DNA of 16,441 nucleotides, taken from assembly GCA_964399335.1 (NCBI GenBank), contig CAYNQI010000023.1:1-16441 (forward strand), in the 5' to 3' direction. Below the pieces are notes generated by a model. That model saw only the letters and a program-made list of their open reading frames with translations, was not told where the DNA came from and did no database searches. Shown here piece by piece: positions 1-13,887 of this stretch; the first letter of the stretch is position 1, and each line of letters begins with the position of its first letter. Source of the DNA: an uncultured Thermoplasmata archaeon. GTDB taxonomy: Archaea; Thermoplasmatota; Thermoplasmata; Halarchaeoplasmatales; Halarchaeoplasmataceae. The position numbers and the translations under genes are program-made.

Positions 1-23
1 GAAAATTCCCTCGTCCCACTGGG

Positions 24-353
24 CCACTAATCATAGATTAGTGGTAAGTTAGAATGCGTCAGCATTCTGATGGGTCTATAAAAAATAACTGATTTTATAT
101 AGGCAGTTAGAAAGCGCAAGCTTTCTGATGGGTCCACTATAAAATCTCTGATTTTTAGTGGTAAGTTAGAATGCGTCAGCATTCTGATGGGTCTATAAAA
201 AATAACTGATTTTATATAGGCAGTTAGAAAGCGCAAGCTTTCTGATGGGTCCACTATAAAATCTCTGATTTTTAGTGGTAAGTTAGAATGCGTCAGCATT
301 CTGATGGGTCCATTTATTTACAATGAATGGCAAGTTAGGATGTGTCAGCATTC
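24..353 (+). repeat. Tandem array of alternating hairpins: conserved 30-nt unit AGTTAGAAWGCGYMAGCWTTCTGATGGGTC separated by 22-29 nt variable AT-rich hairpins; candidate structured ncRNA or REP/BIME-like element
   Basis: Conserved unit at 47-76, 105-134, 164-193, 222-251 and 281-310, with a degenerate partial copy at 333-353. Spacing is 58/59/58/59/52 nt. Positions 38-310 form an exact direct repeat of period 117. Inner stems are AGAATGC-gtca-GCATTCT and AGAAAGC-gcaa-GCTTTCT. Confidence 0.95.
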
Positions 354-1914
354 AAACATGTTTTTTTCGGTATACTGCAATCGAGATTATCATAGAAACC
401 AATATAATTACCGGAGTAAATCCTGGAGTACTTGCTTCCACTTCAAAATTGGCTGTCAGTCCCTTATTCTCCTCGATAGTGATCGTGATCTCCTGCTCAC
501 CTTCGTCAATATTTTCGGATAAATCACCAGACCAGTGACTAAATTCCCATGCATGATCAGGTATAGCTTCTATTTGGATCTCGGTCCCATTTGGTATAAA
601 TTCCAACCTAGAATCCATAACTTCATCCCCCTCGATCTCTACAGTTCCTTTACCTTCAAAATAAAATCTTAAAAAAACCATCTCTAATTCTGTCCATATA
701 AGATACGGATATCCATCGTTTATTTCTTTATCCTCGTCTATATCCCAAATATCTCGGTTCCCTCGACTATCATTCGGATTCTCAACAAAATCCCATGCAT
801 CACCTAAACCTTGAATCGACTCGTCCGAAAAGGTAACGACATCCTTCATCTCTTCAGTTGTTTTTCCGGTCCCACCATCACTTTCTTCTCTCCCTGTCCT
901 CTGCATATCCCAGAATGAATCCAGTACGATGCCATCCTTTTCAGTTATTCCGACTAAACCTCCCACTATATCATCTCCCATCAAATATCCTGTCCCATAA
1001 CAATTTTTTATGGTGCCCGTGTTCCATGCAGCAAAAGAACCACTTCTAGAAGTTCCTTCCACTACTCCTCTTGCAAAGGAATTGATGACAGTACCCCGAT
1101 TGTGTGCTATAAGACCTCCTGAATTACGAAAAGTACATTTTATATGCCCAGTAGAAAAAGAATTTTCGATTATATTATGATTGACTCCAACCAAACCCCC
1201 AACATTTTGAGAACCTTCAACAGTTCCTGTGGTATAGGAGTGAGAAATAACTCCAACATTCCAACCTGCGAGACCTCCTACTTGAAACCCACCTTTAACG
1301 GATGCCGTCGAGTATGATTCCAATATTTCACCTTCTCTAGAGTCGGCTTGCCCTACTAGACCACCTACAAAAGTATCACCGATCACTTCGCCGGTAGTGT
1401 AAGTGTTGTAAAGATCACCATAGTTCCTTCCTACTATTGGCCCCGTATAATATCGGCCTCCATTGATACTCACATCTACAAGTCCTAAATTCCTTACGGT
1501 TCCGAATTTGCCCATTGTTGCAAATAAACCTACGCCCCCGTCATAATATCCAGTATTTGGACGGTTTATGTGAAGACCTCTGATTTCATGACCTCCACCG
1601 TCAAGAACTCCATCAAATCTATCATAAAAATCACCTATCGGTTCAAATCCTTTACCCCCATTCCAATCTTGGGTTTCGTTAGCATAGATATCATTAGTTA
1701 ACAAATAATATGCATCTGAATCCTCTCTAATGTTGTGCAAATCATCTATATTTTCTATGAGATAAGGGTCATCTTCGGTACCGATACCACTTTTAAAAGG
1801 CACTTCTTCTTTTTCGATCTGGTCTCTTTCTTCTAAAGAATTTACAGATATACTTGACATAGTCGTAAATAATAACATCACTATTACAATGACCATACAT
1901 TTTTTAGTACTCAT
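352..1914 (-). CDS. Secreted cell-surface protein: GLUG-motif repeats, InlB B-repeat-like domain and PGF-CTERM-type sorting signal
   Basis: N-terminal K-K plus hydrophobic signal peptide. GTEDDPYLI...YYLLTNDI start typical of GLUG-repeat proteins. Repeated VGGLVG/VGGLAG motifs. GKGTV...EAIPDHAWEFSHWSGD B-repeat-like module. C-terminal TPGF + hydrophobic helix + RKKH, the archaeosortase A substrate signature. Confidence 0.85.
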   Translation of the reverse strand: MSTKKCMVIVIVMLLFTTMSSISVNSLEERDQIEKEEVPFKSGIGTEDDPYLIENIDDLHNIREDSDAYYLLTNDIYANETQDWNGGKGFEPIGDFYDRFDGVLDGGGHEIRGLHINRPNTGYYDGGVGLFATMGKFGTVRNLGLVDVSINGGRYYTGPIVGRNYGDLYNTYTTGEVIGDTFVGGLVGQADSREGEILESYSTASVKGGFQVGGLAGWNVGVISHSYTTGTVEGSQNVGGLVGVNHNIIENSFSTGHIKCTFRNSGGLIAHNRGTVINSFARGVVEGTSRSGSFAAWNTGTIKNCYGTGYLMGDDIVGGLVGITEKDGIVLDSFWDMQRTGREESDGGTGKTTEEMKDVVTFSDESIQGLGDAWDFVENPNDSRGNRDIWDIDEDKEINDGYPYLIWTELEMVFLRFYFEGKGTVEIEGDEVMDSRLEFIPNGTEIQIEAIPDHAWEFSHWSGDLSENIDEGEQEITITIEENKGLTANFEVEASTPGFTPVIILVSMIISIAVYRKKHV

Positions 1915-2096: not shown

Positions 2097-2381
2097 ATGC
2101 CAAAATATGTGATATTATCAAAACTAACAGATGAGGGTAGAAAAACTATTAAAAACAATCCGAAAAGGATAAAGGAAGTGAACGAAGAAATGGAAAAGAT
2201 GGGAGTCAAAGTCGAAAAGCAGTATGCACTTCTTGGGGACTATGATTTCGTAACGATCTTTGATGCTCCTGATAAAAAAGTGATGACCAAAGTAGCAGTT
2301 GAGATGGGGTCTAGAGGTACTATCGATACTGTTACAATGGCTGCTATGTCAGTAGATGAATTTATAGAAGCCATGAAGTGA
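2097..2381 (+). CDS. GYD domain-containing protein
   Basis: 94 aa, MPKYVILSKLTDEG start and LLGDYDFVTIFDAPD motif characteristic of the GYD family. Confidence 0.85.
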   Translation: MPKYVILSKLTDEGRKTIKNNPKRIKEVNEEMEKMGVKVEKQYALLGDYDFVTIFDAPDKKVMTKVAVEMGSRGTIDTVTMAAMSVDEFIEAMK

Positions 2382-4398: not shown

Positions 4399-5718
4399 GT
4401 GAGTAAAATGAACGAAAAAGATGAACTCGCGCCCCATATTGAAGATATAACCCGGGCGCTAAACGAAAAGGTAAGTAAAGAACAAATCGAAGAGGAACTT
4501 CACAACTATATAGATGTTTATGGAGTCCCTCTGGGAACCGCAAAAAGAGCAATAGTAAAAAAGCACGAGGGAGATCCTCAGAAGCTATTCAACAGCACTG
4601 AGAAGAAGATCGAAGGTATAACAGGTGACGAAAGATCACTAAATCTTAAAGCTAGGATCGTTTCTATCAATGATAAAGAAATAGAGGTAGAAAACGAAGC
4701 TAAGACTATACAATACGGAATTCTTGGTGATGAAACGGGGACCGTTCCATTCACTGCTTGGGAAAAATTACCAATAGATATAGAGAAAGGAGATACAGTA
4801 GGTTTACAGAACGCATATGCAAATACATGGAACGACGAACCTCAAGTTAACATAGGAACAAAAAGTACAGTTAAACATCTAGATGAAGATGATGTTCCTA
4901 AGTTTGAGAGTGAAGTCCAGCCATGTGAGCTTAAAGACATAAGAGAAGGTATGAGAAATCTCAGTATAACCGGAAGATTGTTATCAGTTGAGAAAAAAAC
5001 GGTCAATACAAAAAATGGCGAGAAGGATCTATACTCGGGAGTAATAGCTGATGAAACAGGTAAAGCACAATTCAGTGCATGGCACGATTTTGGTTTGGAT
5101 ACTGATGACGTTATCCGAGTGGAAGGCGGATATGTCCGCTCTTGGAGAGGTGTCCCTCAATTGAGTTTCGACGATAAAGCTGATGTTGAATTTTTAGATG
5201 ATGACGTGGTACCTAAAGCTGAGGATCTTAAAGAGATCAACATCCTTTCTATATCTGAGTTAGCAAAGCGTGGAGGAGCAGTTGATGCTGTTATCGATGC
5301 TGTCATGATCGATATCAAAAGCGGCAGTGGATTGATCTTCAGGTGCCCAGAGTGCAGTAGAGTCATCCAAAAGGGTGCTTGTAGGGTACATGGTAAAGTT
5401 GACGGTGAGCCGGATTTAAGAATTAAAGGCATATTAGATGATGGAACTGGAGCATTGACTGTCATAGCCAACAGAGAACTAACGGAAGAAGTACTAGGAT
5501 ATGACATGGAAAAGGCTATGGACATCGCTAGAGACAATATGAATCAAGATGTCATCAAGGATGAGATCGAAGAAAAGTTAATTGCCCAACCTATGAAGAC
5601 TACAGGAAACGTCACCAGCGATGATTACGGTTTGATGTTGATAGCAAATGACCTAAGTACAAAAACCGTTGATGTCGAGGAAGAAGCTAGAAAACTACTT
5701 GACGAGGTGAGAGTGTGA
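4399..5718 (+). CDS. rpa: Replication protein A (RPA), multi-OB-fold ssDNA-binding protein with zinc finger
   Basis: Repeated OB-fold motifs GILGDETGTVPFTAW, GVIADETGKAQFSAW and GILDDGTGAL. CPEC-x8-C-xx-H zinc finger. GTG start. Confidence 0.92.
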   Translation: MSKMNEKDELAPHIEDITRALNEKVSKEQIEEELHNYIDVYGVPLGTAKRAIVKKHEGDPQKLFNSTEKKIEGITGDERSLNLKARIVSINDKEIEVENEAKTIQYGILGDETGTVPFTAWEKLPIDIEKGDTVGLQNAYANTWNDEPQVNIGTKSTVKHLDEDDVPKFESEVQPCELKDIREGMRNLSITGRLLSVEKKTVNTKNGEKDLYSGVIADETGKAQFSAWHDFGLDTDDVIRVEGGYVRSWRGVPQLSFDDKADVEFLDDDVVPKAEDLKEINILSISELAKRGGAVDAVIDAVMIDIKSGSGLIFRCPECSRVIQKGACRVHGKVDGEPDLRIKGILDDGTGALTVIANRELTEEVLGYDMEKAMDIARDNMNQDVIKDEIEEKLIAQPMKTTGNVTSDDYGLMLIANDLSTKTVDVEEEARKLLDEVRV

Positions 5719-5758
5719 GATATCTCACACCTTTTTCCTTTTATATGGAGGTAATAAA

Positions 5759-6637
5759 ATGAGTATGATAAATAGAGAAGTTGCTTGGAGGATGTTCGCA
5801 GAAGAATTTAATAGATCTACTCTTGAAACTGGAGGGACGGAGGAAAGGTCTCCTAGCTATGTAGTTACGCCATTAGGAGCTAAAGTAAATAGAGTATATA
5901 TAGTAGGAGTATTGACTGAAACAGAAAATATAGGCACCCCTGCTGAACCAATGTGGCGAGCTAGGGTTACTGATCCCACAGGTACCTATTTCGTTTCTGC
6001 GGGACAGTATCAACCCAGGGTTGCTACCGCATTAGCCAATTTGGAACCCCCTACTTTTGTTGCAGTCGTAGGTAAAGCCAATACATATAGACCTGATGAA
6101 GAAACCATACTTGTGAACCTAAGAGGAGAACTCATCAAAGAGGTCTCAGAGGAACAGAGAGACTACTGGATATTAGAATCAGCTAAAAGCTTGAAACGTA
6201 GATTGGAAGCAGTTTCTGAGGCTGCTAATATGGAAGAAGTATCAATTGACGAAATGATAGATATAGGGTATGACGGAGATTTAGCAGATGGGATCAAAAA
6301 AGCTATGGACCATTACGGATCTCCTTCTTTTGAGAAATACTGGAGAATGATTGAGGACTCTCTACGATACATACTTCCAGAGTATGAAGGTACGGTTGAA
6401 GAGTCCGAAGATAAAGGAGAAGGTGACGAAGAGATAGAAGACGAGATCCTGAGAGTCATCGAAGAACTTGAAGATATGGCAGAACACGAGAACGGTGTTG
6501 AATACGAAAAAGTGATGAATAAAGTCATGGATAGTGAAAATATTGGACAAGATAAGTTCGAAGAAGCGGTTAACAGTCTACGAAGCAGCGGGAAAGTTTA
6601 CGAACCAGTTCTAGGGAATTTAAAAATAATAGCATAA
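5759..6637 (+). CDS. rpap: RPA-associated protein (COG3390-like; OB fold plus C-terminal winged helix)
   Basis: REVAWRMFAEEF, TPLGAKVNRVYIVGVLTE, RARVTDPTGTYFVSAGQYQP and C-terminal GKVYEP. Lies directly after rpa with a GGAGGT SD, the rpa-rpap arrangement known from euryarchaea. Confidence 0.85.
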   Translation: MSMINREVAWRMFAEEFNRSTLETGGTEERSPSYVVTPLGAKVNRVYIVGVLTETENIGTPAEPMWRARVTDPTGTYFVSAGQYQPRVATALANLEPPTFVAVVGKANTYRPDEETILVNLRGELIKEVSEEQRDYWILESAKSLKRRLEAVSEAANMEEVSIDEMIDIGYDGDLADGIKKAMDHYGSPSFEKYWRMIEDSLRYILPEYEGTVEESEDKGEGDEEIEDEILRVIEELEDMAEHENGVEYEKVMNKVMDSENIGQDKFEEAVNSLRSSGKVYEPVLGNLKIIA

Positions 6638-8878: not shown

Positions 8879-9514
8879 TTAGAATCCAAACAACATCAGT
8901 TGACTAAGTCCTAAGTATAAGGCGATCAACAATGCGGAGGATATAACTAAACCCTTCCTTACATGTTCATCCAGATGATCAGCAATCGAACCAAATACAA
9001 GCATGCCCATACCCGCTATAAGAACTCCGACTGAGGTGAGAAGTAAATATAGACCACGTATAATCTCATGGTGTTCTTCTAGACCGATCTCCATAGCATA
9101 AAATGAAAACAAAATATAACCAACCATCATTAAAACAATACCAATAACACCCATCCAAAGGAAACCCATTCCCGTAGGTTCTTTAGCGATCTTTATTCCC
9201 TGGGAGGGGGTATATGAATCTTTACTTCGGTTCTTAGCTCCATTTGGGCGGGAGACTGGTTTTTGCTGTTGAGACTGTGGATTTTGCTGTTGAGACTGCG
9301 CCTGGGCAACACCTTTTTGAGGTTGTTGAGAACTGGTAGATGCTTGTTTTTCACTTTGAGCCTCTCTTGCTTTTTGTATCTCCTCCTGTGAGGCCCATCT
9401 GAAAGTTCTACCACAGTTTACACATCTACCACTACCATCATCATAAAACTCCAAGCTTTCAGAATCACATCTTGAACAAATACCTCCTGTAGGTTTTTCT
9501 ACCATTCGTTTCAC
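8879..9514 (-). CDS. Hypothetical membrane protein: N-terminal Cys4 zinc ribbon, Gln-rich linker, three C-terminal TM helices
   Basis: CSRC-x12-CVNC, QSQQQNPQSQQQKP linker and three hydrophobic segments after residue ~115. Confidence 0.75.
   Translation of the reverse strand: MKRMVEKPTGGICSRCDSESLEFYDDGSGRCVNCGRTFRWASQEEIQKAREAQSEKQASTSSQQPQKGVAQAQSQQQNPQSQQQKPVSRPNGAKNRSKDSYTPSQGIKIAKEPTGMGFLWMGVIGIVLMMVGYILFSFYAMEIGLEEHHEIIRGLYLLLTSVGVLIAGMGMLVFGSIADHLDEHVRKGLVISSALLIALYLGLSQLMLFGF
9261..9298. repeat. Short in-frame direct repeat (TTTTGCTGTTGAGACTG x2, 21-nt period) encoding QSQQQxP
   Basis: Identical 17-mers at 9261-9277 and 9282-9298. Confidence 0.85.
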
Positions 9515-12720: not shown

Positions 12721-13887
12721 TCAACTCTTTATGATGGTTTCCAACTTAGTTTCAAGTACCTCAGCAGGGATATCTGATACAGTTATTTTTGTAGTACGAC
12801 CGGATCCTATAGAAACGGTTTTAGAGTCTAAAAGACCTTCTTTAGTCAATGATTTGATATACTTCCAAAATTGTGTGTGACCTAAAGGATTTAAACCGTA
12901 TTCTTCAGCTGTGATCTTGTATTGCTCCTCAAGATCTCCAGTAGTGGTGTATGCTGTATTTTTTAACTGCCTCGTAGCTGCTAAAAGGATAACTCTTTCT
13001 TGTTCATTCAGTGATCTTATTCTATTTTCAGTAAAATGTGGGTCTACTTCTGCTTTAGCATGCCTGATCTCCTCGGCATCGATTTCATCTTCACCATTTT
13101 CTTCGGTAAGAAGAGCCGATTTCTCCATCAGTTCTATACCTAACCTAGCATCTCCTCTCTTCGAAGCTATATCAGATAATAGTTTCAATTCTTCATCTCC
13201 GATAGAACCTGGATAAAGTGCTAGCCTTCTACGCTGCTCTAAGATATCATACAATTCTTCAGCATTATATTTTGGGAACTTGATCCGATTACCTCTCTTG
13301 AAAGAACTCAATGCTCCCTCCTCCAAAAACTCCAGAGCATTTTTTTGAGATATTAGTATCAAAGAAATACTTCCCCTGGGGGATAGGTTTTCATCGTCAA
13401 ATCTAGAGAATAAATATATCAGTTCGGAGCCCTCCTTTTTTATTAGAACATCTACTTCATCTAGTATGATCATTAAACGGATACTCTTTTTTTGGATGTG
13501 TTTTTTTAGTATCTCCATCATCTCCCCGACTGAGAAACCCCTATCGGGAAAGCCCTTATCGAAATGGGATATTATTTTCCACATGACCTGACCGTTGTTA
13601 CTGCTTCTTCTGCAGTTAACAAAGATATAATCTACCTTTTTACCTTCCTCCTGTGCATAACCTTTAAAATCCATACAAAATCTCTTTGCAGTGGCTGTTT
13701 TACCTGTCCCTACGCTGCCTTGCAAAAAAGCGTTCTGAGAAATATCTGAATCAACAACGCCCTTAAAAAGGGTGAATAATCTTTGGATCTGTTTATCTCT
13801 ATTAGGAAGCTCCTTCGGAACGTAATCAAAAGAAAGTTTCTTGTGGTCTTTGATAACCTTGGCACTTGTTCTTTTGAAAGCCATCAT
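12721..13887 (-). CDS. cdc6: Orc1/Cdc6 DNA replication initiator
   Basis: YVPKELPNRDKQI, Walker A GSVGTGKT, VNC, Walker B IILDEVD, sensor GDARLGI and a C-terminal winged helix (TTGDL...GLL). Confidence 0.95.
   Translation of the reverse strand: MMAFKRTSAKVIKDHKKLSFDYVPKELPNRDKQIQRLFTLFKGVVDSDISQNAFLQGSVGTGKTATAKRFCMDFKGYAQEEGKKVDYIFVNCRRSSNNGQVMWKIISHFDKGFPDRGFSVGEMMEILKKHIQKKSIRLMIILDEVDVLIKKEGSELIYLFSRFDDENLSPRGSISLILISQKNALEFLEEGALSSFKRGNRIKFPKYNAEELYDILEQRRRLALYPGSIGDEELKLLSDIASKRGDARLGIELMEKSALLTEENGEDEIDAEEIRHAKAEVDPHFTENRIRSLNEQERVILLAATRQLKNTAYTTTGDLEEQYKITAEEYGLNPLGHTQFWKYIKSLTKEGLLDSKTVSIGSGRTTKITVSDIPAEVLETKLETIIKS

Follow-up and report, generated by a model that had tools for sequence, protein, structure and literature searches.

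tRNA genes are classic landing sites for mobile DNA, and the repeats behind E. coli tyrT, whose function is still unclear, are a precedent for transcribed tRNA-tail repeats. These 178-bp repeats distal to tyrT-tyrV (RtT, RF00391; mentioned in 10.1101/2024.07.17.603846) stand in tandem behind a tRNA gene, and each contains a copy of the tRNA 3′ end. REP/BIME elements, pneumococcal BOX elements and yeast mitochondrial GC clusters are short non-coding extragenic hairpins in which the stem base is conserved and the upper stem compensates; they are modular, vary in copy number, are common to several loci and are lineage-specific. IS200/IS605 ends and MITEs (PATEs) have a subterminal hairpin with an imperfection and a strand-specific polarity, and in IS200/IS605 a segment at the 5′ foot of the hairpin is complementary to the element boundary. 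Accretion of att sites by SSV-type or pNOB8-type integrases stacks direct repeats of a tRNA 3′ segment behind the gene, and type III antitoxin (ToxI) and CRISPR arrays consist of tandem short repeats with hairpin potential.

We analyzed a 16,441-nt stretch of DNA (the window; contig C23, CAYNQI010000023.1) from an uncultured archaeon of a hypersaline Thermoplasmata family that belongs to the order Ca. Halarchaeoplasmatales (PMC11332174). At 24-357 the window carries a tandem array of six hairpin units, each composed of a variable hairpin (Hv), a 2-3 nt linker, a conserved hairpin (Hc) and a copy of the tRNA-Ala 3′ acceptor strand (X). A sequence-only reading had proposed three interpretations of this array: a processed multi-unit RNA, a protein-binding scaffold or an archaeal REP/BIME-like element.

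The array and its relatives resemble each of the described systems in part. As in RtT, tandem units with a tRNA 3′ end lie behind a tRNA gene, but there is no sequence or Rfam match, the units are three times shorter with two hairpins each, T-runs interrupt them, and units of this type flank many tRNA genes throughout the family, mirrored where they lie in front. As in REP/BIME, the units are extragenic imperfect palindromes, dispersed and clustered, but they are tied to tRNA-gene ends and copy them, number about 10 per genome and are not tracked by a RAYT-like gene, PF01797 being absent from the Hc-rich genome G007 and represented in the window's own genome by an IS605 with TnpB. The foot segment of IS200/IS605 has a counterpart in X′, the complement of X, which pairs with X on either side, but this pairing spans 5-9 nt rather than 4 nt and a third of the family genomes are missing a Y1 transposase. 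As in att accretion, the module is flanked by directly repeated tRNA segments; however, Hc units are 50-105 nt long, without cargo or viral counterpart, some are mirrored at tRNA 5′ ends, and genome and IMG/VR searches gave no integrase gene or fragment for them and no free element with the same site. In contrast to ToxI and CRISPR arrays, this array has no same-strand downstream toxin or cas gene: Pfam scans found no ToxN- or AbiQ-like gene in the window and no cas domain in 18 of its 22 listed ORFs, the next gene is a convergent GLUG / InlB-B-repeat gene, and the "spacers" are two alternating hairpin types repeated exactly.

Results

Anatomy of the array

The window starts where the contig starts, within the repeat element. 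Successive Hc copies (consensus GTTAGAA, a variable stem-loop and TTCTGAY) start 58, 59, 58, 59 and 52 nt apart (Table 1). Repeat finders report a 31-nt repeated core in six copies, and TRF a period of 59 (4.7 copies) plus an exact super-period of 117 nt; positions 38-154 and 155-271 are 100% identical and thus form an exact 117-nt duplication. The stretches separating the Hc copies also fold as hairpins (Hv1-Hv6), in which the 5′ arm is X and the 3′ arm its complement X′; a typical Hv reads as tRNA end plus T-run, a loop of 3-5 nt, an A-run and the complement. Every unit terminates in the octamer TGGGTC(C/T)A, the 3′ strand of the tRNA-Ala acceptor with its discriminator, and window positions 14-26 duplicate the T-stem and acceptor 3′ side of tRNA-Ala.

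Table 1. Positions of the hairpins, tRNA-end copies and flanking signals of the array in the window.
Feature	Positions	Strand	Description and basis
End of M1 (~100-nt first module behind tRNA-Ala)	1-26	+	contig starts inside M1; match on contig C13; loci L024, L025, L031, L032
Hv1	24-44	+	5′ arm begins within tRNA-end copy; folding
Hc1	48-71	+	10-bp stem, loop GTCA; covariance model R1 match 35-83, E 2.6e-10
X (variant ending TCTA)	71-78	+	copy of tRNA-Ala 3′ acceptor strand
Further X copies	129-136, 188-195, 246-253, 305-312	+	copies of tRNA-Ala 3′ acceptor strand
Hv2	75-103	+	AT-rich; A6 run within 5′ arm
Hc2	106-129	+	compensatory A-T swap, loop GCAA; R1 match 93-141
Hv3	134-161	+	T5 run at 152-156
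Hc3	165-188	+	same sequence as Hc1; R1 match
Hv4	192-220	+	same sequence as Hv2 (38-154 = 155-271)
Hc4	223-246	+	same sequence as Hc2; R1 match
Hv5	251-278	+	same sequence as Hv3
Hc5	282-305	+	same sequence as Hc1; R1 match
Hv6	310-330	+	terminal type; also final hairpin of arrays in L028, L031, L036, L022
Hc6, degenerate	334-357	+	two wobbles, one A.A mismatch, CTGA -> CAAA
T7 run	361-367	+	directly behind array; inside C-terminal codons of − strand gene

Six copies of the conserved hairpin had been read between 24 and 353; we find five full copies and a degenerate sixth that extends 4 nt beyond 353. The compensatory double change described for copies 2 and 4 (GAATGC/GCATTC to GAAAGC/GCTTTC, with the loop changing from GTCA to GCAA) is present as reported. 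The two wobble substitutions in copy 6 are likewise present, together with an A.A mismatch and the loss of CTGA. Hc6 overlaps the stop codon (352-354) of a convergent 520-aa gene, and the T7 run that follows could serve as a terminator of + strand transcription. A 90-codon reverse-strand ORF at 27-299 was rejected as a gene: it has no Pfam match, open frames in orthologous arrays do not exceed 37 codons, and it stays open only because 117 nt equals 39 codons.

Folding of positions 1-375 is stronger than chance by far on both strands, with energies of −139.9 kcal/mol (z −10.6) for the + strand and −98.3 kcal/mol (z −6.3) for the − strand. The expectation that the array lies outside known Rfam families held: cmscan of 1-1500 against Rfam 15, which includes RtT (RF00391), C/D box sRNAs and hammerheads, gave no match inside the array at E values up to 10, and 18 related loci searched at the gathering threshold gave tRNA matches only.

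Three further candidates were rejected. C/D box sRNAs need a C box (RUGAUGA) and a D box (CUGA) at fixed spacing; the word CUGAUGG of the window prompted this comparison, but the C-box-like word is not conserved, since relatives show CUGAC with the tRNA-end copy behind it. A hammerhead needs three stems arranged about a CUGAUGA and GAAA core, plus a UH site for cleavage; CUGAUGAG occurs in contig C30 only, where GAAA is absent and stem III would not fit, and relatives do not keep the word. Integron attC sites pair an outer RYYYAAC with GTTRRRY, with AAC/GTT innermost, extrahelical bases and an IntI gene, whereas the GTT of Hc lies at the outer 5′ end of the stem, the reversed arrangement, and no cassettes lie between the sites.

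The left neighbor of the array

The sequence-only reading had placed a possible protein partner to the left of the window. Paralogy and synteny instead place a tRNA-Ala gene there. Window positions 24-66 are 95% identical to 24171-24213 of contig C13 from the same genome, and the match continues back by eye through window positions 1-23, including the T-stem/acceptor copy. On C13 this sequence lies ~100 nt behind tRNA-Ala(TGC), and the ~100-nt first module, M1, is also found behind tRNA-Ala at four other loci (Table 1). At one of these, in the congener G003 (locus L024), tRNA-Ala(CGC) is followed by the ~100-nt module, a similar array of five to six units and then a GYD gene; the GYD-domain gene of the window (2097-2381) is 92% identical to this G003 gene. 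A second genus has the same gene order, with a GYD gene 75% identical. From the C13 paralogy and the GYD synteny, we conclude that the missing left partner is a tRNA-Ala gene with its ~100-nt module. We have high confidence that the array is a tRNA-Ala gene trailer in expanded form and also a case of a palindromic module found at tRNA-gene ends throughout the family. Duplication of the tRNA and the first module within the genome is the most likely reason for the contig break at the array.

Between the array and the GYD gene lies the 520-aa GLUG / InlB-B-repeat gene (352-1914, − strand), which was either inserted here or lost in G003, since the G003 GYD gene directly follows the array.

Distribution of Hc and its context at tRNA genes

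Hc is spread through the family. The pattern GTTAGAA, 7-11 nt, TTCTGA occurs in 22 of the 23 other genomes, which represent 10 genera, and the reversed pattern used as a control gave about 0 matches. Sister families gave single matches in 4 of 16, all of them non-palindromic, and no palindromic Hc copy was found in these 16. When one exact Hc variant was compared with 185,579 species genomes, 19 Thermoplasmata/Thermoplasmatota MAGs from hypersaline and soda-lake sites matched, including Candidatus Saliniplasma; the ~10 bacterial genomes that also matched correspond to the estimated chance level for 18 fixed bases. The same search matched one Aenigmatarchaeota contig, JBKHKA010000026.1 (L069), in which the 130 nt upstream of Hc are, by eye, the same as those of the Ca. 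Saliniplasma tRNA-Ala(CGC) trailer L030 from the same sample series; this contig is probably mis-binned rather than a case of transfer.

Copy number is low, at about 10 per genome. The covariance model R1, built from 73 units, found nine strong and five weak copies in the window's own genome, with five of the nine strong copies in the window. Perfect hairpins number 693 genome-wide compared with 579 in shuffled contigs, which argues that Hc is a small family, not one of REP scale, and against a genome-wide flood of hairpins. A viral or plasmid origin was likewise rejected: three Hc variants gave 0, 0 and 5 matches in IMG/VR, and the 5 lie in coding sequence with non-palindromic centers, as expected for chance matches.

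The units are linked to tRNA genes by a simple rule: X′ stands in front of every Hc, and X, which duplicates the end of the neighboring tRNA, follows within 1-3 nt. For Ala, Val and Arg this copy covers 7-8 nt of the acceptor strand; for Tyr, Ser and Glu it begins in the T-loop and reaches up to 20 nt. Exact runs shared by the 18 nt behind Hc and the end of their own tRNA average 7.3 nt, compared with 4.6 nt for the ends of other tRNAs. The 76 units include 45 that lie on the tRNA strand, 20-360 nt downstream of the gene, and 8 that lie upstream of tRNA genes (Arg-TCG, Leu, Gln, Ser) on the opposite strand as mirror inversions, followed by the reverse complement of the first 9-13 nt of the tRNA. 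None has the opposite orientation; the order is always Hc and then X. An inverted unit is also contained in the ~100-nt first module behind tRNA-Ser. The remaining 23 units have no tRNA gene within the fetched stretch, some of them being cut by contig ends.

Five of these 23 (L007, L015, L020, L063, L060), from four genera, occupy conserved intergenic stretches rich in hairpins, many of the GGAAT...ATTCC type near Hc, and neither a tRNA nor any other Rfam RNA is present within 1.5 kb.

In the window's own genome (G000), modules of ~100-105 nt occur behind tRNA-His (C39), both tRNA-Glu genes (C8, C1), tRNA-Val (C10) and tRNA-Ser (C42), with two in tandem at tRNA-His. Their edges are 13-19 nt copies of the tRNA 3′ end, and each contains two hairpins, of which one is Hc-like, as well as the T-loop region repeated in inverted form.

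Selection on the fold and strand asymmetry

Covariation supports the earlier proposal that the Hc hairpin is selected as a fold: the upper stem covaries across 10 genera while the spacing of the arms varies from 7 to 11 nt. A comparison of 54 distinct upper stems showed Watson-Crick pairing in 52 at the first variable position, with A-T, T-A, G-C and C-G all in use, and in 46 at the second; both levels are paired in 45, compared with 9.9 in shuffles (maximum 19), although the copies are related and these counts are therefore not independent. None of 500 shuffles reached the covariation of the 73-unit alignment, and pairing collapses when the partner strand is slid along it. The variable arm spacing would suit a hairpin and not a rigid dimer site on duplex DNA.

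Some bias toward the sense strand is seen in the window as well as in the family. The sequence-only reading had taken the G.U pairs of the window copies as a sign that the + strand fold is conserved, an argument that the family does not bear out. The upper stems covary almost wholly through Watson-Crick pairs, with 2 G.T against 4 A.C in the 54 distinct stems, and the outermost G.T of the window copies is a local feature (58 G-C against 11 G-T family-wide). The sole conserved asymmetry of Hc is its fixed third pair, T.G, which 71 of 77 sites from 25 family genomes retain, even where the adjacent pair covaries; the mirrored units upstream of tRNA genes carry it antisense, so that it becomes a C.A mismatch when read in the tRNA sense. 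The other stems show an excess on the sense strand, with 61 G.U pairs against 33 on the other strand in Hv and 86 G.T against 41 A.C in the X′/X stems. In a fixed register, X′ pairs with the downstream X in 65% of cells, compared with 58% in shuffles and 28-49% when slid.

Runs of T also differ between the strands. T5+ runs break up the majority of arrays. A count over 30 arrays gave 44 such runs for the tRNA-sense strand and 16 for the opposite one, and 18 of the 30 have a run ahead of the first Hc. Because oligo-T is the archaeal termination signal, these runs make a long sense precursor through the array unlikely, although partial read-through may occur. A processed multi-unit RNA with the logic of antitoxin or guide arrays, as had been suggested, also fits poorly with a convergent next gene and with sense-strand T5+ runs that break up the units.

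Turnover and nesting

The arrays turn over rapidly. The tRNA-Ala locus carries from one to six units in five genomes of the genus, built from few Hv and Hc types whose order differs between genomes. Different tRNA genes of the same genus can carry one identical Hc variant; the cases are Arg with Lys, Ala with Ser, Tyr with two Val genes, and a Gln-upstream unit with a Tyr-downstream unit. No clean pair of empty and filled sites was recovered among the loci compared.

In C13, C30, C18, L025 and L032, a conserved segment of ~57 nt is nested in the 3′ arm of an Hc and looks like an insertion into the hairpin. It lies in the last Hc of several arrays (L003 (G000:C13) ~1530-1600; L002 (C30) ~1240-1310; C18 ~19850-19930) and consists of a hairpin with GACNAATAAAT-type arms and a tail ending in GGA. 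The idea that its reverse strand encodes the N-terminus of a split SSV-type integrase was rejected, as the ATG frame is stopped in L032 and the segment is a hairpin within Hc.

Search for a partner enzyme

The genes in the window are ordinary chromosomal genes: GLUG/InlB-repeat protein, GYD, M29 peptidase, OB-fold protein, malic enzyme, Kae1 and Orc1/Cdc6. No toxin, nuclease, RT, cas or HUH gene was found near the array, nor did the searches of the window and genome reveal a mobilizing or partner enzyme for Hc. The genome has one tyrosine recombinase and one IS605 (TnpA and TnpB). This IS605 was rejected as the source of Hc, as its hairpins, including that of the left end, are GC-rich and unrelated. 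Y1 transposase (PF01797) occurs in 15 of 23 family genomes and was not found in the other 8, among them G007, which is 95% complete and has ~10 Hc sites. A link to the expanded 5S rRNA of the genome was dismissed because the extra 5S segment is GC-rich and unlike Hc.

Some other features were seen in passing. At ~160-200 of L002 (G000:C30), ~1 kb from the tRNA-Arg array, there is a relic of an IS605 left end in the form of the GC-rich hairpin that also precedes tnpA on C101. The 16-kb window combines Orc1/Cdc6, an OB-fold SSB/RPA-like gene and an MCM-type winged-helix protein (12721-13887 and 4399-6637), near which a replication origin may lie. A 21-nt tandem repeat (2.4 copies, 9252-9298) lies inside the − strand ORF 8879-9514, an MFS-like fragment.

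Discussion

No description of tRNA-end palindromic modules of this type was found in the published literature, and gene-less palindromic modules that copy tRNA ends and are stacked on both sides of the gene seem to be undescribed. The sequence-only interpretation is partly supported, and of its three options the REP/BIME-like repeat fits best. The explanation that we favor, although tentatively, takes the array for a REP/MITE-like DNA module, palindromic in structure, that seeds at the ends of tRNA genes and expands through recombination.

Such a module would fold as a single strand or cruciform and would seed at tRNA-gene ends on either strand with a fixed polarity. Copies would move between tRNA loci, and recombination or slippage involving the X and Hc repeats would lengthen, shorten and reorder the arrays. 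The handle for a trans-acting factor may be Hc with its T.G pair, and X′ would be made locally or selected to pair with X. The relation of X′ to X could have arisen through guide-like pairing, as at IS200/IS605 ends, or through fold-back copying at palindromes, which would also yield locally matched X′ and X.

That the module acts and spreads as DNA we infer from several features. The orientations are fixed both downstream and, inverted, upstream of tRNA genes, and an inverted unit lies inside M1; identical Hc copies occur at different tRNA genes; unit number and order vary; a 117-nt segment has been duplicated and a hairpin nested within Hc; the variable stems are near-perfect palindromes; and T5+ runs concentrate on the sense strand. 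The absence of a mobilizing enzyme from our searches, the missing Y1 gene in 8 of 23 genomes and the lack of Hc in viral contigs weaken this reading. So does the retention of modules by the same tRNA species across several genera, which functional retention fits equally well, and so does the bias of fold energy, of Hv and X′/X wobbles and of T.G toward the sense strand, which a sense RNA would also explain.

A more specific proposal, and an unlikely one in our estimation, is that Hc units would be a new kind of single-hairpin archaeal mobile DNA that homes to tRNA termini on either strand, with X′ pairing to X to choose the insertion point for a putative single-strand DNA transposase or recombinase of these Thermoplasmata. 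Since an inserted unit would end in a new X and so recreate its own target, such an element would explain the tandem arrays.

The main alternative, possible but somewhat improbable, is a structured RNA like RtT that is co-transcribed with the tRNA. Polymerase would pass the tRNA-Ala terminator, the trailer would fold into Hv and Hc hairpins, and cutting at the tRNA-end copies would release small RNAs; in a variant, the trailer would act in cis on 3′ processing or stability of the pre-tRNA. The E. coli tyrT precedent, the position of most units directly behind the gene on the tRNA strand and the T7 run behind the array are consistent with such transcription, but the T5+ runs, which are enriched on the sense strand and precede the first Hc in 18 of 30 arrays, argue against efficient read-through. 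The unit ends coincide with the discriminator position of the tRNA copy, as cleavage there would predict, yet the pairing of X′ with discriminator and trailer is not that of a substrate for tRNase Z or RNase P. The better fold of the + strand, the moderate sense-strand excess of G.U in Hv and X′/X stems and the conserved U.G pair would be explained by a sense-strand RNA, whereas the variable stems show no enrichment of wobbles and the mirrored upstream units would carry a C.A mismatch in tRNA-sense RNA. Conservation of modules at the same tRNAs in several genera agrees with a function of this kind, although Rfam, RtT included, gave no match. On balance, three observations favor DNA: the upstream units are mirrored, wobbles are not enriched, and T-runs lie on the sense strand.

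Two other explanations account for less than either the DNA-repeat or the RNA reading. The units might be passive palindromes, produced by fold-back or slippage errors at heavily transcribed tRNA ends and kept as stacked bidirectional terminators or insulators between the tRNA and its convergent neighbor. Hv presents T-runs on both strands, the array lies between convergent genes, and the exact tandem duplication fits slippage, but we consider this origin distinctly unlikely, as it leaves unexplained why the base sequence of Hc and its T.G pair are conserved across 10 genera, why identical Hc variants occur at unlinked tRNA loci, and why some intergenic units have no nearby tRNA. It is very unlikely that the modules are integrase scars, that is, remnants of a virus or plasmid in the tRNA gene with X as att repeats and Hc as an arm-type site, for although direct repeats of 7-20 nt of the tRNA 3′ end bound the modules, the copy begins in the T-loop, the classic crossover place, for several tRNAs, and the newest units seemingly lie next to the tRNA (L052 compared with L048), the units are only 50-105 nt long without cargo or integrase fragment, the reverse-strand ATG beside the nested insert is not a conserved frame, the genome has a single tyrosine recombinase, IMG/VR holds only the 5 chance matches to Hc, and the mirrored 5′-end units and tRNA-less units misfit a 3′-end att site.

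Should the modules be mobile, they would indicate a new mechanism of insertion in which tRNA-gene ends are recognized, perhaps through base pairing; should they act as RNA, they would be the archaeal equivalent of RtT repeats, which are themselves poorly understood. On either reading, they can be mistaken for CRISPR-like or ncRNA arrays during annotation, and they break assemblies at tRNA loci, as contig C23 shows.
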